A stretch of DNA of 64,000 bases from Candidatus Collierbacteria bacterium RIFOXYD2_FULL_45_13 (GTDB taxonomy: Bacteria; Patescibacteriota; Microgenomatia; UBA1400; MFAQ01). Shown in pieces: positions 6,086 to 52,726 of the stretch (within the stretch, counting starts at the first letter, position 1; the number at the start of each line of letters is the position of its first letter). Under the pieces are notes generated by a model. It had not been told where the DNA came from. It saw only the letters and a program-made list of their open reading frames with translations, and did no database searches. The stretch lies in contig MFAS01000001.1 in NCBI GenBank assembly GCA_001774685.1, forward strand, positions 351,557-415,556. Reading direction: 5' to 3'. Made by a program: the position numbers and the translations under genes.

Positions 6086-6328
6086 ATGCCCACAATTTAC
6101 TTTGAAATCATCGGTTGGGTCGGGACGATTGCCATCATGGTTGCTTATTGGTTAGTCTCCATCGGCAAAATCTCTCCGGTTTCCAAAACCTACCAGCTTC
6201 TTAACCTGTTCGGTGCCGGCTTTGTGATTATAAACGTAGTTTTTCATGGGGCTCTTCCCTCGGTTGCCCTCAACACCATCTGGTTCTTTATCGCCCTCTT
6301 TGGACTTTTCCAAAAGTCCAAAAAATGA
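6086..6328 (+). CDS. small membrane protein
   Basis: AGGAGG RBS 8 nt upstream; three TM helices. Confidence 0.4.
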   Translation: MPTIYFEIIGWVGTIAIMVAYWLVSIGKISPVSKTYQLLNLFGAGFVIINVVFHGALPSVALNTIWFFIALFGLFQKSKK

Positions 6329-8687: not shown

Positions 8688-10181
8688 CTATCCGGTCTTT
8701 CCTAGTTCCGCAATTCTGGTCAATAAATACTCCCGGTTATTTTTTTTGGTATCCTCCAATACTTCTTCGAATAATTCTTTAAGAACTTTTCCGATAATTG
8801 GCCCGGGGGTTACGTTAAGTACTTTCATTACATCTAGTCCGTTCACTACCATATCATTTATTTCCATCGGTTCGAAGAGCTGTTCTCCGATCCGCTTTTG
8901 GAGTTCCATAAATCTCCAGCTGGTTGTTTTGGCACCACTGCCCTTACGGTCGGCAATGCGTAGCATCACCATGTCATTAATATTCTCTTTGCCCACCTTA
9001 CGGATCAGGCGTCGAATGGCACTGTCGGTCATATCCGGCTGGTAAGCAAACATGTGCCATCGAACCAATGTCTCGATTTTATCGATTTGTTTTCGGTTAA
9101 ATTTGAGTCTCTCCGTAATTTCTTTTATCATCCTCGCCCCGATTACTTCATGGCCGTAGAACGTCACCATTCCCTTTGTCGGCTGGGTATATCCACAACT
9201 GGCACAAGTAGTCATTTCCTCGGACAAATCCCGGTACATCTTGGCACATTTTCGGCACTTAAATCTCTGGCTTCTCGGCTTTCCTATATCATGTACAAAG
9301 GTAGCCAAGCGGATGATCGGGTCGGTTGATGGACACTCGGCCAGAGCCTCCAGCATATGATCCAAGACCGACAGTTTGTGGTGTCCACCCTGCACCACAC
9401 CACGACCCTCCATTACTTCCGGCATGAAGTGGTCCATCAGCCCCGTTGAAATGAGCAGTCTTACCCCATCTGCCGGATAGTTAGATCCAAGGATTTTCAG
9501 AAACTCTTCTCTGATTCTCTCCTTGCTGATTTTTTCCAGAAGTACCGATTTTTCACCAATCGCAGTCAACGTGTTTTCCTCAATCAAAAACCCCAGTCTG
9601 GCGGCAAACCTGATCGCCCTCATCATTCGCAGTGCATCTTCGTTAAAGCGGATACGAGGATCTCCTACGGCTCTTATCAAACCATTTTCAAAATCTCTCA
9701 GTCCATCCACCATATCCACCAGCTCATATTCTCCTTTTGAGTTTTTGGGTTTTTGAGTTTTTGTGTTTTTTATTCCAATTACTATCGCATTTATCGTAAA
9801 ATCCCTTCTGGTGACATCTTCATCCAAAGTTTTTCCCCAAGACACATTGTCTGGGCGCCGATAATCGGAATACTCTTTCTCAGATCGGTATGTCGTTACC
9901 TCGTAAAGTTCCTCAATGCCATTGATGGTTACATTAAAAGACACCGTCCCAAAATCATTGTTATAAAATGGGCTGTGCATCCTCAACACCTCCAAGCTCT
10001 GTTCGGGCGTTGCGTTAGTTGTGAGATCACAGTTTTCCGGAACCTTTCCCAAAATCAAATTTCTCACCCCACCACCTACTAAATAAATCTCGAACCCAGC
10101 CTTTTGGTATTCATCAAATGTATTCTTTAGTGGTTCTGGAATCAGTGAAACCTCATCTGGTAATAGCTGTCTGGTGTACAC
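8688..10181 (-). CDS. cca: CCA-adding tRNA nucleotidyltransferase with HD domain
   Basis: GGGVRNLILG...DLTT polymerase-beta head; HDIGKP HD motif; Cys4 insertion CRKC...CASC inside the HD domain. Confidence 0.8.
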   Translation of the reverse strand: MYTRQLLPDEVSLIPEPLKNTFDEYQKAGFEIYLVGGGVRNLILGKVPENCDLTTNATPEQSLEVLRMHSPFYNNDFGTVSFNVTINGIEELYEVTTYRSEKEYSDYRRPDNVSWGKTLDEDVTRRDFTINAIVIGIKNTKTQKPKNSKGEYELVDMVDGLRDFENGLIRAVGDPRIRFNEDALRMMRAIRFAARLGFLIEENTLTAIGEKSVLLEKISKERIREEFLKILGSNYPADGVRLLISTGLMDHFMPEVMEGRGVVQGGHHKLSVLDHMLEALAECPSTDPIIRLATFVHDIGKPRSQRFKCRKCAKMYRDLSEEMTTCASCGYTQPTKGMVTFYGHEVIGARMIKEITERLKFNRKQIDKIETLVRWHMFAYQPDMTDSAIRRLIRKVGKENINDMVMLRIADRKGSGAKTTSWRFMELQKRIGEQLFEPMEINDMVVNGLDVMKVLNVTPGPIIGKVLKELFEEVLEDTKKNNREYLLTRIAELGKTG

Positions 10182-39150: not shown

Positions 39151-39550
39151 GTGTTCGTCAAGCTCTATCTTATTGCCCTTCCTGTATTTTTGGCAATCGA
39201 TATGATTTGGCTGACTTTAGTTGCCAAGAATTTTTATGCCAAGCAGATCGGATTTTTAATGACAAAGAATCCAAATCTCTTGGCCGCCCTGATTTTTTTA
39301 TCTTATTTTTATTGCCGGATTGATCTTTTTTGTAATCACTCCTGCACTTGATAAAAAGATATGGACTCAAGCACTTCTGGCTGGGGCATTTTTCGGTCTC
39401 GTGACTTACGCCACATATGATCTCACAAATTTGGCCACTGTCAAAGACTGGCCGCTTCTGGTTACCATCATCGACCTTCTCTGGGGTATGACTCTCTCCG
39501 CCACCGTTTCCGCCATCACCTACTTTATCGCCACCAAAATTGGCATCTGA
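39151..39550 (+). pseudogene. DUF2177-family membrane protein interrupted by a +1 frameshift in a T7 homopolymer (~39300-39312)
   Basis: Two adjacent ORFs (39151..39351 and 39320..39550) each match half of DUF2177. Removing one T from the run restores LIFYLIFIAGLIFFVITPAL. Confidence 0.5.
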
Positions 39551-39584
39551 CCTTTTATCCAAAAACGGGCAGGGAATCCTTTTC

Positions 39585-39976
39585 TGTTGTCTGTTATAAC
39601 GAAATTCGAACTTATTTTCGGGACCATTACTAATCTATTGGCTCACCGATCAACACTTCATGTCTCGCGGTTCGCCACCGCCAGCCCTGCCGGTCCGCCT
39701 TTGGCGGAGGCGGAAACCCTTGCGCGCGATTAATAATGTATCCCGACTGCGGTCGGGATAATTGCTCTTTCGAGCAAGCGCCAGCTATCACTGTCGCATC
39801 TTTATGTTCGCCACAACTTCACATCCAGTGATTGTGGCGAAACTGTTCTCAATATATGGCTCGAATTTCAAACTCGCCATAAAATATCAGCTAGTTAGGA
39901 AAAGATTTTACTATCTGATATTCCAGAATTGAGACAGCATTTGGCCTTCAGGCCAAAGTGCCTGCTCCGCAGGCAC
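39585..39976 (+). repeat. repeat family copy 1 (~392 nt, non-coding, several hairpins)
   Basis: Near-identical to 45747..46204 and partly to 50857..50959 (inverted); no ORF. Confidence 0.6.
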
Positions 39977-40027
39977 AATAACTATTTCTGGTTGCTATGA
40001 TACACAGAAAGACATAAAATACAAACA

Positions 40028-40555
40028 ATGGAACAAATAATTTTAGCGAGACACTGTCAGACAGATCTATTAGCCTCTGGTGATAGTAGTACAAGAAGAA
40101 ACGATTCTCCTTTATCAGAGTTGGGATTGAAGCAAGCAGCTCAAGTCAGTAAGTTTGTAAACAAATTCGAATATGATGCAGTTTTTTCAAGTTTGTTTAT
40201 TCGAACGATAAAAACAGCAGAAATAATAAACGAGAACAAAAAACCTCAATTCGCCAATATTAATTTGAGTGAGTATTTTGCCGGTGACGACGGAAAAGGA
40301 AGAGAATCAACAACTATGGGAATAGCTAGAACGATGTCTTTTATTTACCCCATGTTTGATCTATACAAATCAATTGTAATTGTCGGTCACAACGCCATAA
40401 ACTCCACAATTCTTAGGTCTTTTCTTAATATGGAATTTGAGGAGGCTGAAGGCTATTTCAAATCAGTCGGTCAAGTACTGGTACTTAGACGAGATTGGCA
40501 AAAAGGAGATAAGGTTTGGCACATAGAGGACAAATTTACCCCTGACCAAGAATAA
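40028..40555 (+). CDS. histidine phosphatase (phosphoglycerate-mutase-like) family protein
   Basis: N-terminal LARHCQT (RHG) catalytic motif. Confidence 0.55.
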   Translation: MEQIILARHCQTDLLASGDSSTRRNDSPLSELGLKQAAQVSKFVNKFEYDAVFSSLFIRTIKTAEIINENKKPQFANINLSEYFAGDDGKGRESTTMGIARTMSFIYPMFDLYKSIVIVGHNAINSTILRSFLNMEFEEAEGYFKSVGQVLVLRRDWQKGDKVWHIEDKFTPDQE

Positions 40556-40556
40556 T

Positions 40557-41663
40557 TTATTTAATTGTTGAGTTTAATAGAGAGATCACCTCTTTGGCGT
40601 GAGTCTCTATAGAGAATTTATCTCTTCGCTTCTCTGATTCCAGTTCATATATTCTTCTTATCTTAGGGTCGAGTAATTTATCTATGGCCTCCGCAAATAA
40701 TTTTGTATCACCAGTTAGAGTAATAATTCCACCACTTCCTATGTATTCTGGCACCGAAGCTTCATTAAGCCCCAAACAAGCCTTGCCTTCATAAATAAAG
40801 TTTGGAATTGTTCCAGAACCCTGAAATATTTCATCTCCATCTGGTTGTCTATACGGGAATATTCCAAATGCGCTATATGAAGAAAGATATTTATATTCTT
40901 TTGAATTTAAGTATTTATCTACTACATAAATTTCAGCCTTTCCAATTATTTTTTTATCAAAGCCTAACTTTTTATACCAACCTCTTCCCGCAATAACCAA
41001 TCTCATCTTTTTATTTACATAAGTTAGTGAATTTACTAGGAATTCATGATCTTTGTAATTAGCAGGGAATCCAGGCAAATACACTGTTGGTACGCTTTCA
41101 GAATGGTTAAATGTATTTTTGAATTCTCGGATTTCGCTTTCTGATAATATTTCATGAGAATGGGTTTCGGGAAGAAAAGAAACCACCCCCGATAAAGAAT
41201 TACCGGATTGTTTTTCCATATACTTTCTAGCAAATGTTCCAAAAAATAAGTAGGACTTGAAAAATTCACATACTGCCTTTTCCACTTCTTTCTGAGTTTT
41301 ATCATCTTTGAGATATTGAGAAAATAAGTTCCTGCTTAGAAAATGGGTAAAATATATTGGATTATTTATTTTCTTTCCGATATTTGATAACACAACAGGT
41401 AGGTACTGTTCAATATCATTCTTTCCATAATGAAAAATAACTGAGTCATATTTATCAAAATCAATTCTTGAGGCGATTTTAGAAACGATCTCTTTGACTC
41501 TATCTGATGAAAGCCACTCCCTCTTTGCTACATCAAAAGCCGACTCTTCTTTTGTCGATCCATCAATATCAACTAAAATATTATGTTCGCGCAGTATCTC
41601 AGATAGTCTATTTACATAAACATCAATGCCACCGCTCGATGGGGAAATCATTAATATTTTCAT
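40557..41663 (-). CDS. putative glycosyltransferase (GT-B, GT4-like)
   Basis: KILMISPSSGG N-terminus; C-terminal EASVPEYIGSGGIITL motif; position inside a GT cluster. Confidence 0.4.
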   Translation of the reverse strand: MKILMISPSSGGIDVYVNRLSEILREHNILVDIDGSTKEESAFDVAKREWLSSDRVKEIVSKIASRIDFDKYDSVIFHYGKNDIEQYLPVVLSNIGKKINNPIYFTHFLSRNLFSQYLKDDKTQKEVEKAVCEFFKSYLFFGTFARKYMEKQSGNSLSGVVSFLPETHSHEILSESEIREFKNTFNHSESVPTVYLPGFPANYKDHEFLVNSLTYVNKKMRLVIAGRGWYKKLGFDKKIIGKAEIYVVDKYLNSKEYKYLSSYSAFGIFPYRQPDGDEIFQGSGTIPNFIYEGKACLGLNEASVPEYIGSGGIITLTGDTKLFAEAIDKLLDPKIRRIYELESEKRRDKFSIETHAKEVISLLNSTIK

Positions 41664-42739
41664 TTTAGAAGTTCTTCATATACCTTTAAGCTTTCATCAA
41701 TCATATGCTCCCTATGAAATTCCGCATTGAGCCTATCATAATTCACTTTATATTTAGACAATTCCTTTATTTTCCTTAGGATGTTTTCAACATTACTTGG
41801 GTCTACATACTCAATCGCTTCATTTGGTTGAAACTCTTTATATACCTGACAATCTTCGTTTACTAACGCAGGCAAGCCAAGTGCTAGTGCTTCAGCTAAT
41901 GCTAATCCAAAACCCTCGACTCTAGAGGTTGACAAAAAGACATCGCAGTTCTTCCAGATATTAACTTGATCTTGTCTCGCTAGGTTGTTAAGGATTACGA
42001 CATTTTCTTTTTTTAGATCATCTCGCAATACCTCTTCAATTGAATTTCCAATATTCAGAATCCAATTTATATCATTTGGAGATTCAGCAATTAGTACCTT
42101 TAATAGGTCAAAGCCCTTCATTAGGGTAGTTTTTCCACACCAAAAAACATTGATTTTGTCTCGAGCAATACATTCAGGTATGCGTACTGATTCTGGAATA
42201 ATTAAAGTATTCGTATCAATGCTGTTGTGGATTACACGGACGTCCTTGAGGCCGTATTTTTTCATAATATCTTTTTTGGCAAACTCACTAACGGCTAAAA
42301 CCATATCGGCATTTAGACACAGTTCTTTTTCCAGTTGAGCCAAATTATCCAAGTCGATCCCGAAAAGGGTTGTGGCGCTCGGATCAGATCTCACCACCAC
42401 CCTTGCGAACCTACTTTGGCGTTTTGAGTAGTCTAGTAGTTCAAATTTCCAGTTAGAGCACTCTACAATGTCAGGTTTGAACTTCTCAACCACCTCCGAA
42501 ACCATTTCTGAATACAAAATAGGGTCTTTGGTAGTTGGAAGGGTAACTATGTTGATCCCAGGCATGGAAAACTCCCTCTGGGTAATACAGCTTACTCTCC
42601 ACCCGCTACTCGTCAAACCAGCCATAATAGCCTTGAAAAGCACGCAAACTCCTCCTCGGTCAATGTCCCCAATGTCCTTGTGTACGAAGCAAATTGATTT
42701 CATATGGTTTAGTAGTATAATTATATAGGATGAAAACAA
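41660..42739 (-). CDS. glycosyltransferase family 4
   Basis: EGFGLALAEALALGLPAL motif. Confidence 0.75.
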   Translation of the reverse strand: MFSSYIIILLNHMKSICFVHKDIGDIDRGGVCVLFKAIMAGLTSSGWRVSCITQREFSMPGINIVTLPTTKDPILYSEMVSEVVEKFKPDIVECSNWKFELLDYSKRQSRFARVVVRSDPSATTLFGIDLDNLAQLEKELCLNADMVLAVSEFAKKDIMKKYGLKDVRVIHNSIDTNTLIIPESVRIPECIARDKINVFWCGKTTLMKGFDLLKVLIAESPNDINWILNIGNSIEEVLRDDLKKENVVILNNLARQDQVNIWKNCDVFLSTSRVEGFGLALAEALALGLPALVNEDCQVYKEFQPNEAIEYVDPSNVENILRKIKELSKYKVNYDRLNAEFHREHMIDESLKVYEELLK

Positions 42740-43779
42740 AGCTGTCCATGCCTGAATTCACGTTTCTTCTTATCAGTAGAAACGCCTCAAATACTATTCT
42801 AAAGACTATCCAGTCAATTAGAAAGCTGTCTCGTGGCAAGAATATCGAAATTATACTGGTGGATGATCATTCGGAGGATGCCACTGTTTCTATGGCCAAA
42901 CCACTCTGCGACAAGGTTTTGGTAAACAAAGCTAGAATGGGGATTGGCTTTTCTAGGCAAAAAGGGTTAGCCTTGGCATCAGCCAATAGAGTGTTTATCA
43001 TCGATTCCGACATTGAAATAACATCAATAAATTTTAAGAAACTGGATCAGTTATTTTCTGAAGGCATTGTGGCTATTTCAGGTAGTTATAATTCCAACGA
43101 CAATCAGTCAAACTGGAATAAAGCTCTTGATCTGAGAAGAAAATATATTTATTTCAAGGATAAGAGGGTGTCCATAGCGGACAAGAGCCGATATGTAACT
43201 TTTTCAGGAGGATTTTGTGTCATTGATATAGAGAAGATTGGTGGAATAAAATATTTTGGAAAGAAAGACACTTCGGCAGAAGATGTTTTATTTCAGCTAA
43301 AGCTATTACATCGTGGCCTAAAGACTGCTTATTCACCGGCATTGGTGGGTATTCACCACCACCATCGAAACACCAGAAGTTTTTTCCAAAAAGTTATGGC
43401 CGATTCCGTCGCCTATCCATGGTTGATGTCCTTATGTCTAAAAAATAAAATAAGTATGCCAGTTTTGGAACAAGCCTTCAATTTTCCAATTTTTCTGATC
43501 ACCTCATTTTTTATACCTAATCTTCAAATAAAATTACTATTGCTAATACTAGAGTTTTTCCCACAGATATACATATTATTCACAGAAAGATTCAGTCCTA
43601 ATTCCATAAGATTGCTTATTTATGCCATTGCTCAATCTTTAATAAAGGTATTAGCCTGCGCTAAAGATTTAATTTTTGGTAAATATAGTTCGTCAGACAG
43701 GATTCTATATATAAAAAATCTATTAACCTCTGATTTTATTTCAAAAACTAACTGGTTTAAGCAGACATTTATCCAATAA
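42730..43779 (+). CDS. glycosyltransferase family 2 with C-terminal TM region
   Basis: FLLISRNASNTILKTIQS...ILVDDHSED GT2 motifs. Confidence 0.7.
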   Translation: MKTKLSMPEFTFLLISRNASNTILKTIQSIRKLSRGKNIEIILVDDHSEDATVSMAKPLCDKVLVNKARMGIGFSRQKGLALASANRVFIIDSDIEITSINFKKLDQLFSEGIVAISGSYNSNDNQSNWNKALDLRRKYIYFKDKRVSIADKSRYVTFSGGFCVIDIEKIGGIKYFGKKDTSAEDVLFQLKLLHRGLKTAYSPALVGIHHHHRNTRSFFQKVMADSVAYPWLMSLCLKNKISMPVLEQAFNFPIFLITSFFIPNLQIKLLLLILEFFPQIYILFTERFSPNSIRLLIYAIAQSLIKVLACAKDLIFGKYSSSDRILYIKNLLTSDFISKTNWFKQTFIQ

Positions 43780-43785
43780 AAAAAT

Positions 43786-44913
43786 ATGGAATTTGAAGTA
43801 AACAAGGAAATAAACCAGTGTAACCCGTACGAAAGATCTGTGGGCGGGTCATTGTTTCGAATCTATGCCACCGAAGCGCAGATTAAATACGTAGACAGAG
43901 TCTTAGAAGGTTCGATAGATGAGTTCAGGGACAGTACCCAAGAGGCTATTGAAGTCGTTTGTACAGACAACACTGAGCTTTCAGAAGATATATTAAGCAA
44001 ATCATCTCTACAAGAAAACTCATCAGCTCTAATCGCCGGAGAGATTGAAGGTGGTAAATTTGTCAGTCTAAAAGGTGTATTCATGGATATTCTAATGTCA
44101 AAAACCGACAATACCCCGTTAACTCATATTTCAATAAGCCAAAATCCTGAATACGGAGCAATTACCTTTATTAAGTCGTATTTGTTAAATAAATATGTAA
44201 ACCAGCAGGAGGCTCTGGTGTTTCACGCAGGGTCGATGACATCATTAGACAATTCATCAAGCTTCGTAATATCTGCCTTAAGTCATCACATTAACAACGG
44301 TGATAACTCAGGAAAAACAACCGCCATATTAGCAAGTTGTGCTAGAGAAAACGCCAACTTCGCATATTCGTCAAACGATGAAGTTATTTTATCTATTTTA
44401 GATAACGCCACTGAGGTTAAAGCGCTTCCGTTTCCAAGTCAGATCACGATAAGGGGAAAATCATTAGAAACGTTAAAGACTGATGGAGTAAATTTCAATC
44501 TCGAAGATTGGAATGGTGTTGATAGTATTACTGGTCAATCTGTAAGTGTGGTCACTCCAAGAGGGGTGATTGAAGCGGGATATCAGGTCTTACCCGTGAA
44601 TCCATCCAGATTAGATTGGTGCTTCATAGAAATTGACCCAAACTTGGCTGATTATTCTTGTGTAGAAGCAGATCCGCAAGCATCAAGACAGCTTTTTTGG
44701 GGTGCAGTTTCAAAAAGAAGAATGAATCAAGCCTTAAACCCATTGTTTTTAGGAGAAACAAGTAACACCCAAGCTTATGATCCAATTACATGTCAGCCAA
44801 AGGTGGATGAAATATTCAATCGTTTGGTCTTATCCGGTACAAAATTTTACATTCTTCGAGGAGGAGCAGACAGGGATAAATTAAACGCAATCTTTACTAA
44901 GTTAAAGCGATAA
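43786..44913 (+). CDS. hypothetical protein with P-loop-like GDNSGKTT (HPr-kinase-C-like?)
   Basis: FHAGSMTS...GDNSGKTTAILA; no firm family. Confidence 0.3.
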   Translation: MEFEVNKEINQCNPYERSVGGSLFRIYATEAQIKYVDRVLEGSIDEFRDSTQEAIEVVCTDNTELSEDILSKSSLQENSSALIAGEIEGGKFVSLKGVFMDILMSKTDNTPLTHISISQNPEYGAITFIKSYLLNKYVNQQEALVFHAGSMTSLDNSSSFVISALSHHINNGDNSGKTTAILASCARENANFAYSSNDEVILSILDNATEVKALPFPSQITIRGKSLETLKTDGVNFNLEDWNGVDSITGQSVSVVTPRGVIEAGYQVLPVNPSRLDWCFIEIDPNLADYSCVEADPQASRQLFWGAVSKRRMNQALNPLFLGETSNTQAYDPITCQPKVDEIFNRLVLSGTKFYILRGGADRDKLNAIFTKLKR

Positions 44914-44916
44914 AAG

Positions 44917-45708
44917 ATGAAATACAAAGCTTTATTGCTCGATATTGATGGCGTCTTGCTTAACAAGGAGGATGATACGGATCAGAAAACTTGGGAAGCA
45001 ATAAATGATCTCATCGCCCGTGGTATTCAGGTATCCTTTGTAACTTCGCGCCCATACGGACTAGCGTCACATCTTGTCAAAAAGATATCTGACCACGGTA
45101 TCCATGTATTTGAAAATGGAAACTTTATTTATGAACCAAAAGACAAAAAGGTTCATAAAGCTGAGTACTTAGAAACACAGCTCTCCGGAGAAGTTATTCA
45201 GATGGTAAAACCTCATGAAGGAAATATAAAAATAGGGTACTCGTTGGGAGACAAGTTTATGGTTAATGAAAACTACTTCGATAATTTGAAGTCATATATG
45301 CCGGTAAACGACTACTCAAAAATAGATGAATATTGTGAATATAACTACGTTTCAATTTGGCTCAAAGATATTCCAAGTTATTTCGGCAAAAAAATTATTG
45401 AGATTGTAAAAAACAATGCCCGTATTAATATCTATCATCAAAACGAACTTCTTGATTCGGTATTTATCCACCCAGAATCAGGCAATAAATTGGAGGGGGT
45501 AAAAGAGTTATCAAAATTAACGGGAAGATCTCTAGAGTCCTCGGTCTTTATCGGAAATGATTCGGATGATATCTGCTTGGCTCGTGAGGTCGGACTTTCG
45601 GCGACTCCAGCAAATGGCATTGATGAACTCAAGAAAGTTTCAGTTATTGTCTCAAGCTATGAGTATTCACTTTCAATAAGCGATATCATACAAAAAGTGT
45701 GGGGATAA
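44917..45708 (+). CDS. HAD-superfamily hydrolase, subfamily IIB (Cof-like sugar phosphatase)
   Basis: LLDIDGVLL (DxD) motif I; GNDSDD motif IV. Confidence 0.7.
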   Translation: MKYKALLLDIDGVLLNKEDDTDQKTWEAINDLIARGIQVSFVTSRPYGLASHLVKKISDHGIHVFENGNFIYEPKDKKVHKAEYLETQLSGEVIQMVKPHEGNIKIGYSLGDKFMVNENYFDNLKSYMPVNDYSKIDEYCEYNYVSIWLKDIPSYFGKKIIEIVKNNARINIYHQNELLDSVFIHPESGNKLEGVKELSKLTGRSLESSVFIGNDSDDICLAREVGLSATPANGIDELKKVSVIVSSYEYSLSISDIIQKVWG

Positions 45709-45746
45709 ACTATCCGCGCGGGCGACATATCCGACTGATGCCGGAA

Positions 45747-46204
45747 AATCTCAATCTGTTGTCTGTTATAACGAAATTCGAACTTATTTTCGGGACCATT
45801 ACTAATCTATTGGCTCACCGATCAACACTTCGTGTCTCGCGGTTCGCCACCGCCTGCCCTGCCGGTCCGCCTTTGGCGGAGGCGGAACCACTTGCGCGCG
45901 ATTAATAATGTATCCCGACCTCATCATCATTGCGAGGTTCGGTGCTCCGAGCCGTGGCAATCTCACACCATTCTGATTCGGTCGTGATGGTTGCTCTTGC
46001 GAGCAAGCGCCAGCGTTCGCTGTCGCATCTTTATGTTCGTCCCAACTTCGCATTCAGCGATTGGGACGAAACAGTCTCAATATATGCTCAAATTAGCAAT
46101 TTCGCCATAAAATATCAGCTAGTTAGGAGAATATTTTACTAGCTGATATTTAGGACTTGAGACAGCATTTGGCCTGTCGGCCAAAGTGCCTGCTTCGCAG
46201 GCAC
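45747..46204 (+). repeat. repeat family copy 2 (~458 nt; ~60-nt insertion relative to copy 1)
   Basis: Alignment to copy 1 by eye, with compensatory substitutions in two stems. Confidence 0.6.
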
Positions 46205-46220
46205 AAAATATTTTGAGTAA

Positions 46221-46250
46221 TTGACAGTAATGTATACGTTGTCATACAAT
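46221..46250 (+). promoter_or_regulatory. sigma70-like promoter TTGACA-N18-TACAAT overlapping direct ATGTATAC repeats (probable RHH operator); near-leaderless start at 46259
   Basis: ttgacagtaatgtatacgttgtcatacaatgtatacatATG. Confidence 0.4.
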
Positions 46251-46258
46251 GTATACAT

Positions 46259-46657
46259 ATGACAACCAACAAAGTTCTCAACGCCAGAGTTTCAGACAAG
46301 CTATACGAAAAAATATCTGATAAAGCTAAGAAAAATAGAACTACTGTTTCTAACTTAATCAGAAACTTAGTCGAAGATGCATTGGAGATCCACGAAGATT
46401 TTCATGAAGCCGTAGACAAGAAAATCAGGAAATATCTTTCAGAAACTGAAAAACAAGACATTTTGGGATACCAGGAGATGGTACTTGTTAAAGATACTGA
46501 ATGCGACAACTGTGGTATGTTACTCAAAGTATCAGAAACAGCATATTTTGCCTTTTTCGAAGACAGGGATGTTAAGGCTATTCTCTGTGCCACCTGTAAA
46601 AACGAAAGTTTACAACCGGAGAAAACAAAAGCGCATGAGAATACTTCAAATAAGTAA
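46259..46657 (+). CDS. ribbon-helix-helix (CopG/Arc-like) DNA-binding protein with C-terminal CxxC...CxxC zinc ribbon
   Basis: N-terminal VSDKLYEKISDKAKKNRTTVSNLIRNLVEDAL RHH pattern. Confidence 0.45.
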   Translation: MTTNKVLNARVSDKLYEKISDKAKKNRTTVSNLIRNLVEDALEIHEDFHEAVDKKIRKYLSETEKQDILGYQEMVLVKDTECDNCGMLLKVSETAYFAFFEDRDVKAILCATCKNESLQPEKTKAHENTSNK

Positions 46658-48008
46658 GGAGTTACTTGCCCTAAGTATCCAAACTAAGCCTTGGGATAAA
46701 GATGGGTTTGCCTCTAAAACAAATGCTATCTTGATTCGAAAGTCCCTAGAGAGATTGGGTTCTGTATTTGTGAAGTTGGGGCAGATGTTGGCATTGCGGC
46801 CAGATTTTATCCCTGTCATTTTTTGCAATGAGCTATACAAACTACTAGATCAAGTTCCCCCTTTCGAGTCAAAACTTGCACTAGACATCCTTCGACATGA
46901 GCTCGGAAATAATAAATTCTCAAAACTTCTAGAACTCAATCCCAATCCTGTTGCCTCAGCTTCCTTTGCACAAGTTCATAAAGCAAAATTGGCTAATGGT
47001 GATGTTGTGGCTGTCAAAATTCAAAGACCAAATGTTGAACTGGTGATTCACGGAGATTTAGCAATTATGAGGTTCATGTCAAAATTATTTGATTTTTGGT
47101 TCCACCCAGCAAATAAGTTAATAAACATCGTGGAAGAGTTTGAAGCCTGGACAAAAGATGAGCTTGATTATTCACTAGAGGCCAGCAATATAGAAAAGTT
47201 TAATGACACTGCCGAGCTTGTGGGAGATGGTATTCGTGGTCCAAATGTATACAGGGAACTAAGTACATCTAAGGTGATAACAATGGAATTCATTGATGGT
47301 TACAGCTTAACCAAAATAATTACCCTTTTGCAAGAAGGAAATAAGAAACAAGTTCGAGAGCTTGGTTTTGATGGTAAAGATATTGTCGATAAATTAATCA
47401 AAAATATGTTGGAAATGTCCCATGTTCATGGTTTCTTCCATGCGGACCCTCACCCAGCCAATATTATTTTCACCCTAGAAAAAGAACTGGTATTAATTGA
47501 TTTTGGCATAGTGGGCAATCTTTCAAGAAAAGAAAGAACCCTAATGCTAAGGTACTTCCGAACACTAATGGCAGGCAATGCTAAGGATTCGTTTGATTCG
47601 TTACTTGAACTTTGTGGTAATAAACAACCAGAAAATTTAGACCAAGTCAAAGAACGATATTCTACTTTGATTGATAAGTTTGCGGCAACATTCAGTTCAA
47701 AAACTTACTTGGAGCAACAAATAAAGTCTGGCCCCATTCTAGCCGAAACACTTAGTCTTATGCAAGGTAATGGTATGAAAGTTCCAGTTAGCATTGTCAG
47801 ATACTTCAAGGCATTCGAAACAGTCGAGGGTCTGATTTTTGCACTTTACCCAAAACTACAAATCCAAGATATGCTCAAAGAATTTAGGCGGGTATCAATA
47901 ATAAATATCGTCGATTCCATCCCCACAAAATTTGATTCGGTAAACATTGATTCCTTAATGCTCAAGATTATCGATTCTGTGGAAAAAAGTTTGTTACTTG
48001 ACGACTAG
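46635..48008 (+). CDS. ABC1/UbiB-family atypical protein kinase
   Basis: FVKLGQMLALRPDFIP motif; kinase catalytic motifs. The track ORF (46485) is trimmed to Met51, which overlaps the upstream gene by 23 nt. Confidence 0.7.
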   Translation: MRILQISKELLALSIQTKPWDKDGFASKTNAILIRKSLERLGSVFVKLGQMLALRPDFIPVIFCNELYKLLDQVPPFESKLALDILRHELGNNKFSKLLELNPNPVASASFAQVHKAKLANGDVVAVKIQRPNVELVIHGDLAIMRFMSKLFDFWFHPANKLINIVEEFEAWTKDELDYSLEASNIEKFNDTAELVGDGIRGPNVYRELSTSKVITMEFIDGYSLTKIITLLQEGNKKQVRELGFDGKDIVDKLIKNMLEMSHVHGFFHADPHPANIIFTLEKELVLIDFGIVGNLSRKERTLMLRYFRTLMAGNAKDSFDSLLELCGNKQPENLDQVKERYSTLIDKFAATFSSKTYLEQQIKSGPILAETLSLMQGNGMKVPVSIVRYFKAFETVEGLIFALYPKLQIQDMLKEFRRVSIINIVDSIPTKFDSVNIDSLMLKIIDSVEKSLLLDD

Positions 48009-48047
48009 GAAGACTAGCGGAACAACGTTAAGGGTTACAATAAAAGT

Positions 48048-48344
48048 ATGAGCAAAGCATTTCGACTACTTTTTATTACAATACTAATATTTTCAGCATA
48101 TCATCTGATCCGTGATTTACTCACAAATTTTGGAATTCATAACTATATTGTAGATTTTGCACATCGTCCTCACTTGTGGTGTGGAAAATTTTATCCTTGG
48201 GTTTGTCATTGGATTACAGTTCCTCCTGAGATTTTTACGTTAATAGTGTCAATAATCGTATTAAAGCGAAACAGGGTAGGAGTACTTGGGTTTTTAGTTT
48301 TATTACAAGTACCACTGTGGTTATTATTAGTCTTGTTACCTTAG
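48048..48344 (+). CDS. small 3-TM membrane protein
   Basis: ORF track; hydropathy. Confidence 0.3.
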   Translation: MSKAFRLLFITILIFSAYHLIRDLLTNFGIHNYIVDFAHRPHLWCGKFYPWVCHWITVPPEIFTLIVSIIVLKRNRVGVLGFLVLLQVPLWLLLVLLP

Positions 48345-48350
48345 CAAATA

Positions 48351-48917
48351 ATGTTTCGCTCACTTTTCCAAAAAATTGTAAGACAAAGATCTGAAGTTGT
48401 TATTAGTCGCATCTTTCCATTTCTCAAAGACTCAAAAAAGATTTTAGATATTGGTTCTGGGACGGGTGATGTAGCATTTCTGCTAGGGGAACATGGAAAA
48501 GACGTAACGCCTGTTGATGTTAGCGATTTTCATGGTCCTAGACTTGTAAAAACCACGATCTACGACGGACGAAAACTACCATTTCCGAATAACTCATTTG
48601 ATACTGCCATGCTGCTTATGGTTATGCACCACACCCCTAACCCAGAAATTGTCTTTGATGAAGCATCGAGGGTAGCCAAAGAATTAGTAATTATTGAAAC
48701 TTCATACACGACTCCGATAAACAGATGGTTTACTATAGTCTCTGATGCTCTAGGAAATCTTCGCCTTGAAGCCTTTTGGTCATCATATAAATCTGATTCT
48801 GAGTGGAAGGAACTTTTTGCAAAAAAGAAATTCGAAATAGTTAAAACTCAAAAATATAACGACAGAAATTTTGGTCTCCCATTTCTACACATCGCCTATT
48901 ATTTACGACGAAAATAG
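48351..48917 (+). CDS. class I SAM-dependent methyltransferase
   Basis: ILDIGSGTGDV motif I. Confidence 0.65.
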   Translation: MFRSLFQKIVRQRSEVVISRIFPFLKDSKKILDIGSGTGDVAFLLGEHGKDVTPVDVSDFHGPRLVKTTIYDGRKLPFPNNSFDTAMLLMVMHHTPNPEIVFDEASRVAKELVIIETSYTTPINRWFTIVSDALGNLRLEAFWSSYKSDSEWKELFAKKKFEIVKTQKYNDRNFGLPFLHIAYYLRRK

Positions 48918-49555
48918 TTTTTAACCCACTTCCTCCCAAACTTAATCCATCCAAAATATATTGTGCCAGACGCATAAGCAAAAATCCAACTGATAGCAGT
49001 GAATGATACAGCATCGGTAACTTTAAGAGATATTAGGTACCAAATTATCGTGGCGGGTATCATGCCCAAAGTCGATACCATAAAATATTGAGAGAATTTG
49101 AGATTAGTCAGTCCAAAAGCATAAGAAATTACATCGTGAAATTCCTTCATAAATAATCGAAATACAAAGAGAGTTTGTAATCCATAGTCTTTTGTCAGTC
49201 CGTCTAGCTTTTCTAAGGCGTCCAAACCAGCCACTTTTTCTACTACCTTTCTACCCCAAATCCTTCCTATCCAAAAGTTTGTTATCGAGGCAATCACGGC
49301 AGCGATAAAGGCATAGACCACAGACATTTGTCCGTATAGATAAAATCCAGCGAACAGAAACGGTGAACCACTTAAGGGGGCAGCCACATTTGTTATCCAT
49401 AAGCAGAAAATAAGTAGCACAACACCCCACGGTCCAGCACTTGCCATAGTTGTTCTTATTGTCGTTTCCGGTATCATCGTGCCAATCAAAATCATGATTA
49501 AAAAAGTGAGAACGATCAGAAATATGGGCAAATAGTTTCTTTTGTGAATCTTCAT
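48899..49555 (-). CDS. DedA/TVP38-family membrane protein
   Basis: PLSGSPFLFAGFYLYG motif; multi-TM. Confidence 0.65.
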   Translation of the reverse strand: MKIHKRNYLPIFLIVLTFLIMILIGTMIPETTIRTTMASAGPWGVVLLIFCLWITNVAAPLSGSPFLFAGFYLYGQMSVVYAFIAAVIASITNFWIGRIWGRKVVEKVAGLDALEKLDGLTKDYGLQTLFVFRLFMKEFHDVISYAFGLTNLKFSQYFMVSTLGMIPATIIWYLISLKVTDAVSFTAISWIFAYASGTIYFGWIKFGRKWVKNYFRRK

Positions 49556-49617
49556 GCGATTGGTAAATTATACCCCGCCGATTCTAACTGTTTTGATCAT
49601 TCTCGATCCGTCAATCA

Positions 49618-49642
49618 GCCAAAGTGCCTGCTTCGCAAGCAC
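49618..49642. repeat. solo copy of the repeat-family terminal hairpin (GCCAAAGTGCCTGC-TTCG-CAAGCAC)
   Basis: Matches the 3' end of repeat copies 1 and 2. Confidence 0.4.
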
Positions 49643-49651
49643 GCCTAAATC

Positions 49652-50689
49652 TTATTTGATTGGAGTAAGAGGTAATTGACTGGAAATATATGAAGCAATT
49701 ACTTGCTGGGCAATGGGTTCTACTCTTCGGCCAACCCACGATGCTGCTTTTCCTATATTTCCAAGTAATAACTTAATTTTTTCAATATCATGCGGTTTCT
49801 TGATTTCATCTTGTAACGCACCAAGATTTTTCATTATTTCTTCTTTATTCTCTGGATTTTTCTCGTCAATTTCCTTACGAATACTATCAAAACTTGTGTC
49901 AATATCAGCATTTATGTTTACTGGACTATTGTTTCCAGTAGTTATGTTGATATTGTGTCCATATCTTACTTTTTTAATCATTTCCTTTTTATCATTGCTT
50001 TTAAGACTAATTCCTGTGAGAAATTGTACTCCCTCTGGTTTTATCTTGATACTAATATATGATCCTGTTGAGTCTCTCAATATTTCAATAAAATTATTAA
50101 ACTCTAGAATTTCTAAATTTGAATCTATAGTATTTTTATCAAAGGGAAAGATAGATCTCATAAGGTCAATATGTAAATTCGTGGAATAACTATCTTTTCT
50201 GTGCATATATAGCGGTTCCAATATCGCCTTTGCCATAAGTTCATCGGTCATATGGTCGCCGAACATTTTGATCTGAAATGTTTTTTCCATCGAATCATGG
50301 ACTTTGATATTGTGAATTCTAGAATCTTGCTGACGTCCATCCTCGAGGTCTCGAATAAACCTAAATATGAAACTTTCACTTTGACTTGTAAGGACATCTT
50401 TATCAAATGGAAGGTAGTGTAGTAAGTTCACTAATGCTTCTTCAAGAAATGGTTCTTGGGGAAACTTTTTACTTTTTGGGTCTGCCCACAAATAATCTAA
50501 GAGCATAGACTGTTGGAAGCATATCTTCCCAACAAGCTCCTTATCATTTTCATCATATATTCTAAAAGCGGCAATCCATACTAAAAAATTTCCGTTTACC
50601 TGATTGTTTCTTCCCGTGAGATTTACTGCGTGCGCCGTGTATATGCCACTCCCATTCCTAAATTTTATTTTTTTGAATTCGTCATCCAT
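49652..50689 (-). CDS. hypothetical protein (345 aa), island cargo next to the recombinase
   Basis: AT-rich ORF; no recognisable family. Confidence 0.4.
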   Translation of the reverse strand: MDDEFKKIKFRNGSGIYTAHAVNLTGRNNQVNGNFLVWIAAFRIYDENDKELVGKICFQQSMLLDYLWADPKSKKFPQEPFLEEALVNLLHYLPFDKDVLTSQSESFIFRFIRDLEDGRQQDSRIHNIKVHDSMEKTFQIKMFGDHMTDELMAKAILEPLYMHRKDSYSTNLHIDLMRSIFPFDKNTIDSNLEILEFNNFIEILRDSTGSYISIKIKPEGVQFLTGISLKSNDKKEMIKKVRYGHNINITTGNNSPVNINADIDTSFDSIRKEIDEKNPENKEEIMKNLGALQDEIKKPHDIEKIKLLLGNIGKAASWVGRRVEPIAQQVIASYISSQLPLTPIK

Positions 50690-50856
50690 AATTTACAGCA
50701 ATTCTATATCTTTCAGTATCATAAGTATATGCGTTGTTGATATTTTCAATATAATTTAGTTAATAAAAATCCCGAGCTCGAACACTATAGGAAAAAACCA
50801 ATTTTTGCGTTTTCTGTCATGGCTACTGCGGTAGCCATCGTTCGAACCGATGTTAC

Positions 50857-50959
50857 GGCAGGCGGTGGCGAACCGCGAGACACGAAAGTGTTGAGCGGTG
50901 AGCCAATAGATTAGTAATGGTCCCGAAAATAAGTTCGAATTTCGTTATAACAGACAACA
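50857..50959 (-). repeat. repeat family copy 3 (partial, inverted; first ~100 nt of the core)
   Basis: Reverse complement aligns to the 5' part of copies 1 and 2, then diverges into a unique hairpin ATGGCTAC-TGCG-GTAGCCAT (50824-50843). Confidence 0.5.
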
Positions 50960-50989
50960 CTTCGGGATAAATCGGGAGAGTCGGGGTAA

Positions 50990-51022
50990 GTCGCCCGCGC
51001 GCCCGCCCACGCGCGGAGCGAC
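50990..51022. repeat. 33-bp GC-rich palindromic hairpin, left inverted repeat flanking the recombinase gene
   Basis: GTCGCCCGCGCGCCCGCCCACGCGCGGAGCGAC; the reverse complement recurs at 52563-52596 with 1 mismatch. Confidence 0.55.
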
Positions 51023-51130
51023 GCTCAGTTCTTTAATAATCTGTATCTTTCAAAAAGCGACAGAAAACGCAAAAATAAATTCGGTAAAACTTCTGCGGAA
51101 GTTTTGGGTCTTTTATGGTTAAATGAATGT

Positions 51131-52726
51131 ATGACCAAGTACATTGCGTACTGTCGGAAATCAACAGACGAGAAAGATCGACAAGTTTTGTCGATCGAAG
51201 CCCAGATTGCCGAGCTAAAAGAATTCGCCAAGAGGGAGAAGCTTCACATTGTCGAAATTTTAGTTGAAAGTAAAACCGCCAAAGAGCCGGGGAGGCTTGT
51301 CTTTCAACAAATGATAAAGCTTCTCCAGTCCGGCCAAGCCAACGCCATTCTTTCATGGCACCCAGATAGACTAGCCAGAAATAGTGTCGACGGAGGTCAG
51401 ATAATATATCTCGTCGACACAGGTGTAATTACAGATTTGAAGTTTCCCTCGTTCTGGTTTGAGAACACCCCTCAAGGCAAGTTTATGCTAAACATTGCCT
51501 TTGGCCAGTCTAAATACTATGTCGATAACCTCTCTGAGAATGTTAAGCGCGGTAATCGCCAAAAATTAAGGAATGGCGTTTGGCCGAACAAAGCTCCTCT
51601 TGGCTACAAAAATATTGTCGAGAACAAATCAATTGACATCGATCCGGAAGAAGCCAAAGTCGTCAGAAAAGCTTTTGAAATGTTTGCTGATGAAAAATAC
51701 TCTTTCATTCACATTGCTCGCTTCATGGCACAAGGGGGAATAACAAGCGCCCTCGGGAAGCCTTTGAAGATTGACCAAATCAAAAGTATGCTCCAGAAAA
51801 AATTCTACATCGGCACGATGGAATTTAATGGCGAAGAGTTCAAGGCTTCCCATCCAACTTTCATCAGCAAACAACTTTTTGAAAGAGTCCAAAGTAACAT
51901 TCAAAAGTTTTCTAGACCAAGGGAAACCAGTCACGACTTTGCTTTTTCCGGTTTGATGCGGTGTGGGGAGTGCGGCGCTACCATCACGGCTGAGCAACAC
52001 ATCAAGCACTACAAAAGAACCAATCGCACAGTCAAATATATTTACTATCGCTGTACAAAGAAAATAAAGGCCTGTTCTCAGCCGTATCTGGAAGAAAACA
52101 ATCTCTTTGATCAACTGAAGAGTGAGATTGGCCCCTCCGCCCTCCCCAAATCTTGGCAACGTGAGTGGAAAACTCGATTGGCACAGGATAAAGTCCTAGC
52201 GGATGAGTCCAAAGAAAAAGTTCTCGCCCTGCTTCATACCCAAACCGAAAGTTTTGATACCAAACTAAATACTCTTCTCGATGGATATCTGGACGGCACA
52301 GTTGACTCCGACATCTACAAAACCAAAAAGAGTCAGCTGTTCCAAGAAAAGCTCAAACTTGAGAGCCAGATATCCAAAACAGAAGAAGAAGGTTGTAGTT
52401 GGCTCGAACCTTTTTCTAAGTTTGTAAATAGCGCCATACTGGCGCAAAAAATCGCGCGCAAGGGTTCCGTGGACTCAGAACTGCGGTTCTTCGTCCAAAA
52501 CATCGGTTCGAACTTCTTTTTGAAAGATAAACAGATTATGGTGGAATGGGAAAAGCCCTTCGCATCGCTCCGCGCGTGGGCGGGCGCGCGGGCGACTACC
52601 CCGAAAACGGGCGGGGAATCCCAGAGTGTTGCCGGACTAGGATTCGAACCTAGAATATTCGCCTCCAGAGGGCGACGTCCTACCATTAGACGACTCGGCA
52701 ATACGAGCTCTATTTTACCTCATTAG
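51131..52726 (+). CDS. large serine recombinase (integrase/resolvase type)
   Basis: N-terminal catalytic YCRKSTDEKDRQVLSIEAQ motif, recombinase domain, Cys4 zinc-ribbon CGECG...YRCTKK, coiled-coil region. The ORF has no stop until 52726, so the C-terminus runs through the right IR and antisense tRNA-Gln and the true end is uncertain. Confidence 0.75.
   Translation: MTKYIAYCRKSTDEKDRQVLSIEAQIAELKEFAKREKLHIVEILVESKTAKEPGRLVFQQMIKLLQSGQANAILSWHPDRLARNSVDGGQIIYLVDTGVITDLKFPSFWFENTPQGKFMLNIAFGQSKYYVDNLSENVKRGNRQKLRNGVWPNKAPLGYKNIVENKSIDIDPEEAKVVRKAFEMFADEKYSFIHIARFMAQGGITSALGKPLKIDQIKSMLQKKFYIGTMEFNGEEFKASHPTFISKQLFERVQSNIQKFSRPRETSHDFAFSGLMRCGECGATITAEQHIKHYKRTNRTVKYIYYRCTKKIKACSQPYLEENNLFDQLKSEIGPSALPKSWQREWKTRLAQDKVLADESKEKVLALLHTQTESFDTKLNTLLDGYLDGTVDSDIYKTKKSQLFQEKLKLESQISKTEEEGCSWLEPFSKFVNSAILAQKIARKGSVDSELRFFVQNIGSNFFLKDKQIMVEWEKPFASLRAWAGARATTPKTGGESQSVAGLGFEPRIFASRGRRPTIRRLGNTSSILPH
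52563..52596. repeat. 33-bp GC-rich palindromic hairpin, right inverted repeat
   Basis: Reverse complement of the 50990-51022 sequence (1 mismatch). Confidence 0.55.
52629..52700 (-). tRNA. tRNA-Gln (anticodon CUG)
   Basis: Cloverleaf folded by hand. Acceptor arm 6/7 bp with a U1:A72 pair. D-loop AAUGGUA. Anticodon stem UCGCC/GGCGA with loop CUCUGGA. T-arm CUAGG-UUCGAAU-CCUAG. CCA is not encoded. Confidence 0.7.

Follow-up and report, generated by a model that had tools for sequence, protein, structure and literature searches.

The 64,000-nt stretch of Candidatus Collierbacteria bacterium RIFOXYD2_FULL_45_13 analyzed here (contig MFAS01000001.1, positions 351,557 to 415,556; hereafter, the window) carries a repeat of about 0.4 kb, named E, which is a real, uncatalogued structured non-coding element of Collierbacteria-like ultra-small bacteria. 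E forms a family in which structure is conserved; its copies lie at the ends of gene cassettes in a low-GC island, one cassette has been lost in a sister strain via recombination between two E copies, and the 3' domain of E is linked in several genomes to the gene of a large serine recombinase (LSR) that overlaps a tRNA gene. Taken together, E is best read as a structured RNA gene of a mobile island that doubles as the recombination module of a tRNA-targeting LSR island system, a reading that we hold at about even odds. In the following, R is the 3' ~110-nt domain of E, and X and F are the modules around the partial third copy (Table 1).

A New Family of Structured Non-Coding Elements

The three copies of E lie where the preliminary description of the window had placed them (Table 1). 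A repeat finder and a three-way alignment gave all three a single sharp boundary, TGTTGTCTGTTATAAC, and a 33-nt probe matches these three copies only, with 0 matches in shuffled sequence. The identity between copies 1 and 2 is 98% in the first 165 nt and drops to 84–85% beyond. The compensating stem substitutions reported between them, TTCGCCACAA/TTGTGGCGAA versus TTCGTCCCAA/TTGGGACGAA, are correct, and a third compensated pair is found in an inner stem (TCAC/GTGA versus TCGC/GCGA). Likewise, the TTGCTC...GAGCAA stem is kept with a loop of TTTC or TTGC, and both full copies end in GGCC-N4-GGCC followed by the GTGCCTGC...GCAGGCAC hairpin, which has 8 bp and a 3-nt loop. The ~60-nt insert of copy 2 had been thought to replace the TATCCCGAC/GTCGGGATA hairpin, which was wrong; it is a hairpin extension located in the loop of the ATCCCGAC/GTCGGGAT stem, the copy 2 stem is retained with one mismatch, and relatives also hold variable-length inserts at this loop site. 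The copies had been described as free of open reading frames (ORFs); copy 2 does hold mechanical ORFs of 68–83 aa, but none of them is in common with copy 1.

Pattern scans confirmed with nhmmer and BLAST recovered 16 distinct full-length relatives of 370–525 nt, as well as partial copies. One scan used an 18-mer from a block conserved between two diverged halves against a species-level genome collection, and the other used a 24-mer excluding the window's own organism against metagenomes. In these two scans, E was found only within a narrow genome group, mostly on contigs of a Collierbacteria type from the candidate phyla radiation (CPR), several of which are titled Candidatus Collierbacteria. 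The core sequence is highly conserved across the aligned relatives, several genomes carry 2–3 copies per locus, and some copies are truncated, fused to other genes or struck by insertion elements without apparent replacement. A few relatives come from metagenome-assembled genomes (MAGs) labeled Saccharibacteria or Pseudomonadales, and these labels are regarded as doubtful because the adjacent recombinase is of a Patescibacteria type. At four loci (L008, L015, L027 and L036), E and such a recombinase occur in MAGs labeled Gammaproteobacteria or Pseudomonadales, which probably reflects mis-binning or mislabeling.

E matches no catalogued family. At the gathering score, Rfam 15, whose scan scope includes group I and II introns, RNase P, GOLLD, ROOL, HEARO and OLE, gave only tRNAs in the window and the 16 loci with relatives, and at an E-value of ≤10 nothing credible, the tRNA model included, was found over copy 1. 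A BLAST of copy 1 against phage and plasmid collections and a 28-mer scan of viral contigs gave no match, and E was not found described in the literature on CPR, serine recombinases, tRNA and non-coding RNA. The possibility that the copies match the ends of a known insertion sequence (IS) or miniature inverted-repeat transposable element (MITE) family was also looked at; the termini, TGTTGTCTG... and ...GCAGGCAC, are not inverted repeats of each other, and no target-site duplication was seen in the flanks of 20 E copies.

Conserved Structure and Favored Strand

Both strands of E fold far better than shuffled sequences (z = −8.1 and −8.7). A curated structure of 82 pairs in 13 helices was scored over 16 distinct copies, in which 96.5% of cells are paired and 17 of the 82 pairs show changes on both sides, amounting to 57 cells, a count that overstates independent events because many of the aligned sequences share a common descent. 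Covariation scores 0.144, compared with 0.078 in shuffles, of which 0 of 500 attain the former value, and pairing falls to 32–44% in a control with partners slid by 1–3 columns. RNAalifold agrees, with 17 pairs changed on both sides; one such hairpin change is AUAUCAGCUAG/CUAGCUGAUAU to AUACCCACUGA/UCAGUGGGUAU. The selection on structure that had been proposed from two copies is supported and extended to 16 distinct copies from other genomes. Base pairs kept via compensatory changes in independent sequences are what is expected of a structured non-coding RNA (ncRNA) in general, and E is a structurally constrained, new non-coding family. Its 5' ~280 nt comprise two terminal hairpins, a three-way junction and four further hairpins, several of whose tips accept inserts; across the alignments, variable-length inserts are confined to hairpin tips, and unpaired linkers such as CAUAAAGAU (minus-strand reading) are invariant.

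E probably encodes an RNA, as judged from these sequence features, and the window's minus strand is favored as the RNA sense for copies 1 and 2 because of four signals. In the minus-strand reading, G.U cells number 43 in 17 columns and A.C cells 12 in 10 columns. The loop of the UUGCUC/GAGCAA hairpin varies among GAAA, GCAA and GUAA, all of the GNRA type, with GNA triloops in the rest, and one G.U pair of an 11-bp long-range helix, read on the minus strand, would turn into a C.A mismatch if the plus strand were read. Moreover, the context is gene-like, in that the 3' end of E is followed by a flank that also follows tRNA-Gln or tRNA-Glu and includes a GC-rich hairpin and a U-run.

An Island with Two Cassettes Bounded by E

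The GC content is 34–41% from 40 to 51 kb and 43–48% on both sides. This low-GC island of 11 kb extends from copy 1 to the LSR gene and tRNA-Gln and contains two cargo cassettes, each of which is closed, at its end distal to the recombinase, by one E copy with the orientation of tRNA-Gln. As the preliminary description had wondered, the copies do sit at island boundaries, with copy 1 at the left edge and copy 2 as the cassette divider. Cassette 1 terminates in a decayed flank remnant (45700–45746). Both the adjoining of the recombinase gene to a tRNA gene and the presence/absence polymorphism described below are features of tRNA-targeting islands. No Phage_integrase domain of the kind expected for an integron was found in the ORFs of 36–56 kb, which hold a serine recombinase only.

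Contigs that encode the 345-aa protein of cassette 2 were looked up. In one of them, from the same population (L058; JGI Ga0103682_10000045), the ribbon-helix-helix gene runs straight into the DUF2177/TspO/sortase genes, and the 6.2-kb cassette 1 is absent. Its single E is a hybrid, with the left flank of copy 1 and the body of copy 2 from the first distinguishing base (position 74) on, so that the alignment places the crossover within the first 73 nt of E. Near-identical strains thus differ in whether they carry cassette 1. In L045, a relative at a greater distance (79–97% protein identity), the same cassette lies between two E copies, which makes a loss in L058 more likely than a gain in the window strain. 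An inverted cassette 2 was looked for in the same population, and all 24 of 24 contigs have the same orientation.

The cargo directly upstream of the recombinase unit varies between genomes and includes defense-type genes, such as a complete type I restriction-modification system (L064, 870–7642) or a helix-turn-helix (HTH) protein with a reverse transcriptase (L061, 6341–7634; weak RVT_1 match).

The Shared End with tRNA-Gln

E had been suggested to derive from a tRNA without an anticodon arm, similar to the adjacent tRNA-Gln. The resemblance to tRNA-Gln holds for the minus-strand 3' end of E, which has the T-loop-like GTTCGAAT, the last five bases (...CAACA) and the downstream flank in common with it, but the likeness ends there. 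Copies 1 and 2 (minus strand) and copy 3 (plus strand) all end in ...AAGUUCGAAUUUCGUUAUAACAGACAACA. Between the shared parts, 11–15 nt differ between tRNA-Gln and the co-oriented copies 2 and 1, and thus the E repeats are not copies of tRNA-Gln. A derivation from a tRNA is not supported. ARAGORN called neither a tRNA nor a transfer-messenger RNA (tmRNA) in any E copy, and in the window it called solely tRNA-Gln; with the Rfam models, too, no cloverleaf and no tRNA-like domain with a tag reading frame were found. The T-loop-like GUUCGAAU has no conserved flanking stem (relatives have GUCCGAAC or UUUCGAAC), the bases around this heptamer are not conserved, and the relatives keep neither a T-arm with a 5-bp stem and a UUCRANY loop nor a D-loop. 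The D-loop-like segment, UAAUGGU, is replaced in L015, L027, L036 and L047, with UAGAAGUUUUG there in L015 and L047. A tRNA gene split by a group I intron was considered and rejected, as there is no Rfam intron match and no 5' strand complementary to the 3' end.

The sequence 3' of copy 3 is homologous to that 3' of tRNA-Gln, with a first hairpin and then a GC-rich hairpin, GUCGCCCGCGCGCCCGCCCACGCGCGGAGCGA, which is succeeded by GGGCUUUU after tRNA-Gln. Copy 2 retains part of this flank and copy 1 its first hairpin only. An end-plus-flank module is hence common to tRNA-Gln and copies 3, 2 and 1; tRNA-Gln, copy 2 and copy 1 are co-oriented, and the flanks are more decayed with distance from the LSR gene, a pattern expected if successive insertions at one site push older ones outward. 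In L036, the flank of tRNA-Glu equals that of the partial E copy over ~95 nt (80 nt at 96% in the inverted-repeat comparison), and the identity begins inside the tRNA's last bases (UCACCUUGCAG...). E thus behaves as a pseudo-tRNA 3' end that would mimic an attachment site, because the end and flank of tRNA-Gln are shared and E stands beside the recombinase gene where a tRNA gene otherwise lies.

The Recombinase Gene and Its Leader

The LSR encoded beside tRNA-Gln has catalytic, Recombinase and zinc-ribbon domains and thus belongs to the large serine recombinases. At least 7796 relatives were found at an E-value of ≤1e-20 among 8000 scored candidates, and the few named ones are labeled Patescibacteria or Parcubacteria; four relatives with 53–74% identity (L061–L064) were fetched with their surroundings. 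The last ~90 LSR codons run antisense through the tRNA-Gln flank and tRNA-Gln, and in all four fetched relatives the 3' end of the ORF overlaps an opposite-strand tRNA gene (Gln, Glu, Pro and Glu). Counting L036 and the window, six genomes have the LSR 3' end antisense over a tRNA gene for Gln, Glu or Pro, with ORFs of 508–540 aa; the protein tail therefore depends on the neighboring tRNA. A 90%-identical LSR in L051 faces and abuts E in place of a tRNA. The gene calls of the NCBI record (L054, 3964–5586, equal to 51104–52726 of the window) contain no recombinase, only a 176-aa opposite-strand ORF; in further assemblies of this organism, a recombinase of 531 or 540 aa is called, and three assemblies break inside the gene.

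In addition, the LSR gene is bracketed by inverted repeats. These are 80–103 nt long and 98–100% complementary in L061–L064, starting inside the tRNA's last bases, while L036 has 80 nt at 96% and the window 51 nt at 86%; the window pair looks older. One arm lies upstream of the start codon and the other inside the last ~75 codons. Both arms would be part of the recombinase mRNA. The LSR ORF also contains, at 52450–52468, a 19-nt piece of E (AATCGCGCGCAAGGGTTCC), and the inverted partner of the 15-nt motif of X (52499–52513) lies ~30 nt further. This piece matches the E class of its own genome, being GGAACCCUUGCGCGCGAU in the window and L051 and GGUAUCCGGUCGCGCGAC in L036, L038 and L046.

Upstream of the LSR gene, copy 3 is a conserved leader module and not a decayed copy, because the same X-R junction and arrangement recur in L036, L043 and L061 and, weakly, in L062. 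The junction reads GTTCGARCCGATGTT-(T)AC, then GGCAGGCGG..., with the same upstream X in L036 and L043 and one motif base changed in L061; in L062 (57% LSR identity), the R match is weaker (E-value 2.5e-9) and the motif more diverged. R is thus found upstream of LSR homologues in these four genomes. The X-R break is at the tip of the CCGCC-GGCA-GGCGG hairpin, which is a site of variable-length inserts in full copies. The order of the unit is TTTTTGCG..., hairpin, motif, R, pseudo-tRNA end, flank, ...CGCAAAAA and the LSR gene start. The outer TTTTTGCG... and ...CGCAAAAA arms pair over 13–23 nt and enclose a module of ~270 nt, with a conserved core and extensions that covary between genomes; the arms might either close an RNA as its outermost helix or bind protein as paired sites. 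In L046, a complete E replaces X-R directly upstream of the LSR gene.

The circular permutation formed by X, R, the LSR gene, the E piece in its 3' part and the motif would fit a ~1.65-kb circle that integrates at the palindrome AACATCGG-TTCGAA-CCGATGTT. This is a lead only, because L046 has an intact E upstream of its LSR gene with the same 3' junction and because inverted repeats of 80–103 nt allow inversion, gene conversion or other histories.

Table 1. Features of the island in the window and corresponding sites at other loci (L numbers). Window coordinates are counted from the first base of the window.
Feature	Position	Strand	Description
Decayed flank hairpin 1 remnant after copy 1	39551–39584	minus	GGATTCCCTGCCCGTTTTTGG; abuts the DUF2177 stop codon
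E copy 1, full-length	39585–39978	minus (proposed RNA sense)	3' end at 39585; left edge of the low-GC island; coordinates and identity by repeat finder and alignment
Cassette 1	39979–45746		36.6% GC; histidine phosphatase, three glycosyltransferases, 375-aa unknown, HAD hydrolase
E copy 2, full-length	45747–46206	minus (proposed RNA sense)	divider between cassettes 1 and 2
Cassette 2	46207–50801		36.2% GC; ribbon-helix-helix protein, ABC1 kinase, methyltransferase, VTT-domain protein, two unknowns
Solitary terminal hairpin of E	49610–49642	minus	right after the stop codon of the minus-strand gene 49652–50689
Island right edge	X-R module 50802–50968; LSR gene 51104–52726; tRNA-Gln 52628–52700		tRNA-Gln on the opposite strand, overlapped by the LSR ORF end
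X module, joined to R	50802–50856	plus	TTTTTGCGTTTTCTGTC 50802–50818 (inverted partner 51059–51075); hairpin GGCTAC-TGCG-GTAGCC 50821–50836; 15-nt motif GTTCGAACCGATGTT 50840–50854
E copy 3, partial (domain R, last ~110 nt of E)	50857–50968	plus (proposed RNA sense)	112 nt; inverted relative to copies 1 and 2
Flank F after R	50969–51075	plus	hairpin 1, GC-rich hairpin GTCGCCCGCGCGCCCGCCCACGCGCGGAGCGAC (inverted repeat left arm 50984–51034), then GACAGAAAACGCAAAAA closing the module
LSR gene	51104–52726	plus	540 aa (531 aa from the ATG at 51131); PF00239 Resolvase, PF07508 Recombinase, PF13408 Zn_ribbon_recom
3' flank of tRNA-Gln, right arm of inverted repeat	52552–52627	minus	hairpin 1, GC-rich hairpin, then GGGCTTTT; homologous to the flanks after copies 3, 2 and 1
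tRNA-Gln (CUG), island right edge	52628–52700	minus	3' end faces the recombinase gene; ARAGORN and Rfam
Outer arm pairs	window 50802–50818 / 51059–51075; L036 5998–6020 / 6259–6281; L063 7693–7713 / 7967–7987
Inverted repeat arms	window 50984–51034 / 52552–52602; L036 6157–6236 / 7760–7839; L061 7825–7904 / 9422–9501; L062 7872–7960 / 9410–9498; L063 7852–7954 / 9399–9501; L064 7815–7917 / 9411–9513
LSR/tRNA overlap regions	window 52628–52726; L061 9498–9527; L062 9495–9557; L063 9496–9569; L064 9510–9584; L036 7835–7889
Solitary terminal hairpin pair sites	window 49610–49642; L027 3965–4039; L031 3148–3192; L032 1487–1538; L053 7979–8048
~95-nt insert sites	L042 ~2880–2975; L043 ~310–405; L040 ~1046–1140; L027 ~4040–4130

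Proposed Mechanism and Alternative Explanations

In the proposed mechanism, copies 1 and 2 would be read on the minus strand as structured RNAs of ~0.4 kb. Domain R would end as a pseudo-tRNA 3' end, with GTTCGAAT and ...CAACA, followed by a hairpin/terminator flank like that of tRNA-Gln. Newer insertions near the LSR gene would push older ones outward, and recombination between E copies would remove or exchange cassettes. The LSR, and not homologous recombination, is the presumed agent acting on E, and each cassette may carry its own functional E because either the RNA or the site is of importance to the element. Several points weigh against this mechanism. The strand is undecided by folding energy, since the RNAalifold totals are similar on both (−92.3 versus −87.8 kcal/mol), and in one relative, L044, the terminal hairpin contains wobble pairs that exist on the plus strand only. 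No consistent sigma-70-type promoter (−10/−35) was found upstream of either end of E, and the flanks after copies 1 and 2 are decayed, without a clear terminator. In 12 of 16 copies, a gene starts 20–120 nt past the plus-sense end, and E could therefore act in cis on that side. Ordinary homologous recombination between repeats that are 98% identical could account for the loss in L058 without any site-specific step, and large serine recombinases normally use ~50-bp sites on double-stranded DNA, not 400-nt modules. The relatives, moreover, were collected with exact patterns from E itself, so the sample favors conserved cores and close lineages. A scan for consensus promoters and terminators around E gave chance-level results.

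The main rival to an RNA gene is that E acts as DNA only, as a large, attC-like attachment or accessory site for cassette recombination whose RNA product is irrelevant. The nearly strand-symmetric structure, the missing promoter, the position of E copies exactly at cassette ends, the hybrid copy left after cassette loss and the R/X break fixed at the CCGCC-GGCA-GGCGG tip in four genomes (weaker in a fifth, L062) would all suit such a site. However, ~50-bp double-stranded sites would not explain selection on at least 8 hairpins over 400 nt, the variation within GNRA loops and the excess of G.U over A.C are strand-specific, conserved unpaired linkers (CAUAAAGAU) and tip expansion are typical of RNAs, and a terminator-type flank follows E; as these strand-specific features argue against it, we consider a DNA-only role unlikely, at perhaps one chance in five. 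Somewhat less likely still is that E is an ordinary housekeeping ncRNA gene serving as a passive integration hot spot, with the extra copies as by-products of integration. E indeed lies beside the recombinase where a tRNA gene would, shares the flank of the tRNA gene and has a highly conserved core, but integration normally leaves a second copy of just that target portion which lies 3' of the crossover, whereas the cassette carries a complete, divergent copy (85% in the 5' 230 nt, with pairing kept). The 2–3 copies per locus in several genomes, the truncated, fused or IS-hit copies without apparent replacement and the finding of E, in the two scans, only in a narrow genome group also speak against a housekeeping gene.

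That E propagates itself as a non-autonomous mobile element, such as a tRNA-derived short interspersed nuclear element (SINE) or a MITE, is very improbable. Its multiple copies, sharp ends and T-loop-like motif would be in keeping with this, but E has no terminal inverted repeats or visible target-site duplication, is not recognized as tRNA-like and has no consistently nearby reverse transcriptase or transposase, and the sole flank kept is the one shared with the recombinase and tRNA, not that of random insertion sites. Slightly more improbable again, by analogy with ColE1-type plasmids, is a protein-independent, RNA-primed replication origin of excised circles; although the cassettes encode no replication or recombination protein and each has one long, structured and conserved non-coding module, no circular form was observed, and the Rfam and plasmid searches gave no similarity to RNA-primed origins, leaving analogy only. 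Two further candidates were rejected. E as a 5' leader of downstream genes is not favored, as a near-consensus promoter that belongs to the ribbon-helix-helix gene itself lies between copy 2 and the start codon of this gene, and a template/variable repeat of a diversity-generating retroelement does not fit, as no E copy is located within an ORF and a reverse transcriptase is missing from the vicinity.

A bolder version of the RNA gene reading is that E and the X-R leader form a novel class of mobile-element RNAs acting together with the recombinase, either as a regulator of its expression or as an RNA partner that chooses or marks attachment sites. The leader holds a copy of the target tRNA's flank, which in other genomes shows 80–103 nt of complementarity with the 3' end of the recombinase mRNA itself. 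We consider such a role doubtful, with about one chance in ten; if true, it would imply an RNA-dependent layer in the serine-recombinase cassette exchange of CPR bacteria, which is equally doubtful.

Comparison with Known Systems

Tycheposon islands of Prochlorococcus target tRNA and tmRNA genes and grow by tandem accretion (bioRxiv 10.1101/2020.12.28.424599). Like them, the island studied here may repeat the 3' end of its target at element boundaries, has older remnants farther from the tRNA and occurs in a population where subpopulations without the element coexist with carriers. Unlike in tycheposons, the repeat unit is a complete ~400-nt structured element and not a partial tRNA, and the recombinase gene is bracketed by long inverted repeats; the recombinase is an LSR, a minority type in tycheposons (bioRxiv 10.1101/2020.12.28.424599).

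The SCC-type arrays at rlmH (orfX) in staphylococci are moved by the large serine recombinases CcrAB and have direct repeats of ~15–20 bp. Similar to these, serine-recombinase-linked cassettes are arrayed in tandem at the 3' end of one gene, recombinase-less cassettes adjoin a recombinase-bearing one, and the cargo includes genes of a surface-polysaccharide type. The boundaries here, however, are 400-nt structured modules, and the SCC target is a protein-coding gene. The attC sites of integrons are single hairpins of 60–140 nt, recognized as single strands by a tyrosine recombinase. As in integrons, each cassette has one structured site that is conserved in fold and variable in sequence, and the cassettes are arrayed by the recombinase gene, but E is ~4 times larger and multi-branched and no tyrosine integrase is encoded in 36–56 kb.

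Large structured RNAs of mobile elements include GOLLD and ROOL, found near tRNA genes in prophages, the bridge RNA of IS110 and the guide RNAs of IscB and TnpB. E resembles them as a covarying module of several hundred nucleotides on mobile DNA near tRNA genes and a recombinase. Unlike these RNAs, it matches no Rfam family (the scans covered the Rfam-curated ones among them), and in contrast to the IS110 bridge RNA and the IscB/TnpB guide RNAs, no guide-like complementarity was found, though part of E lies upstream of the recombinase gene.

Bacteria of the CPR (Patescibacteria) have very small genomes about which little is understood, and new families of large structured RNAs are rarely found; E has clear covariation and no Rfam counterpart. 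Moreover, it links a structured non-coding module to a visible change in a natural population, namely a glycosyltransferase cassette present or absent in sister strains, and ties it to a widespread serine recombinase family with tRNA-overlapping genes bracketed by near-perfect inverted repeats of 80–103 nt. If the E RNA is expressed, it would be an entry point to the exchange of surface-modification and defense genes in organisms without most classical mobile-element machinery, and if E acts as DNA only, its size and degree of structure would be unusual for the attachment module of a serine recombinase.

Additional Observations

The terminal hairpin pair of E (UUGGCC-N4-GGCCAA plus GUGCCUGC-N3-GCAGGCAC) is also found alone, sometimes directly 3' of a stop codon (Table 1), and may be a separate terminator-like module common to E. 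At three loci (L032, ~460–545; L044; L028), the last ~75 nt of E are replaced with the beginning of a gene whose product contains ...RLYGVNTPE..., a motif like that of staphylococcal nuclease; the junction, ...CCGCGAC followed by AGTCGAACTTCTTT, resembles the region of the 15-nt recombination motif. In addition, an insert of ~95 nt (...GTAACGAAGTTAC...GATAACAGTACTGTTATC...GACGAGCAAGCTC), resembling a miniature mobile element, interrupts or abuts several E copies at differing positions. An insertion sequence lies between the 3' end of E and its flank in L051 (695–1850), with terminal inverted repeats of ~25 nt (ACCGTTGCA...GGTCACCTGATT), a frameshifted transposase-like ORF (714–1610 and 1622–1828) and a possible CACTCTG/CTCTG duplication that brackets the element.

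The DUF2177 membrane-protein gene by copy 1 is split into overlapping ORFs (39151–39351 and 39320–39550; Pfam positions 2–59 and 56–123), owing either to a frameshift or to a sequencing error, and gene callers in other assemblies call its second half only. As well, the near-consensus promoter just upstream of the ribbon-helix-helix gene (TTGACA-18-TACAAT, 46221–46250) overlaps palindromes (TGTATACGTTGTCATACAATGTATACA; 46215–46260) and is probably an autoregulated operator.

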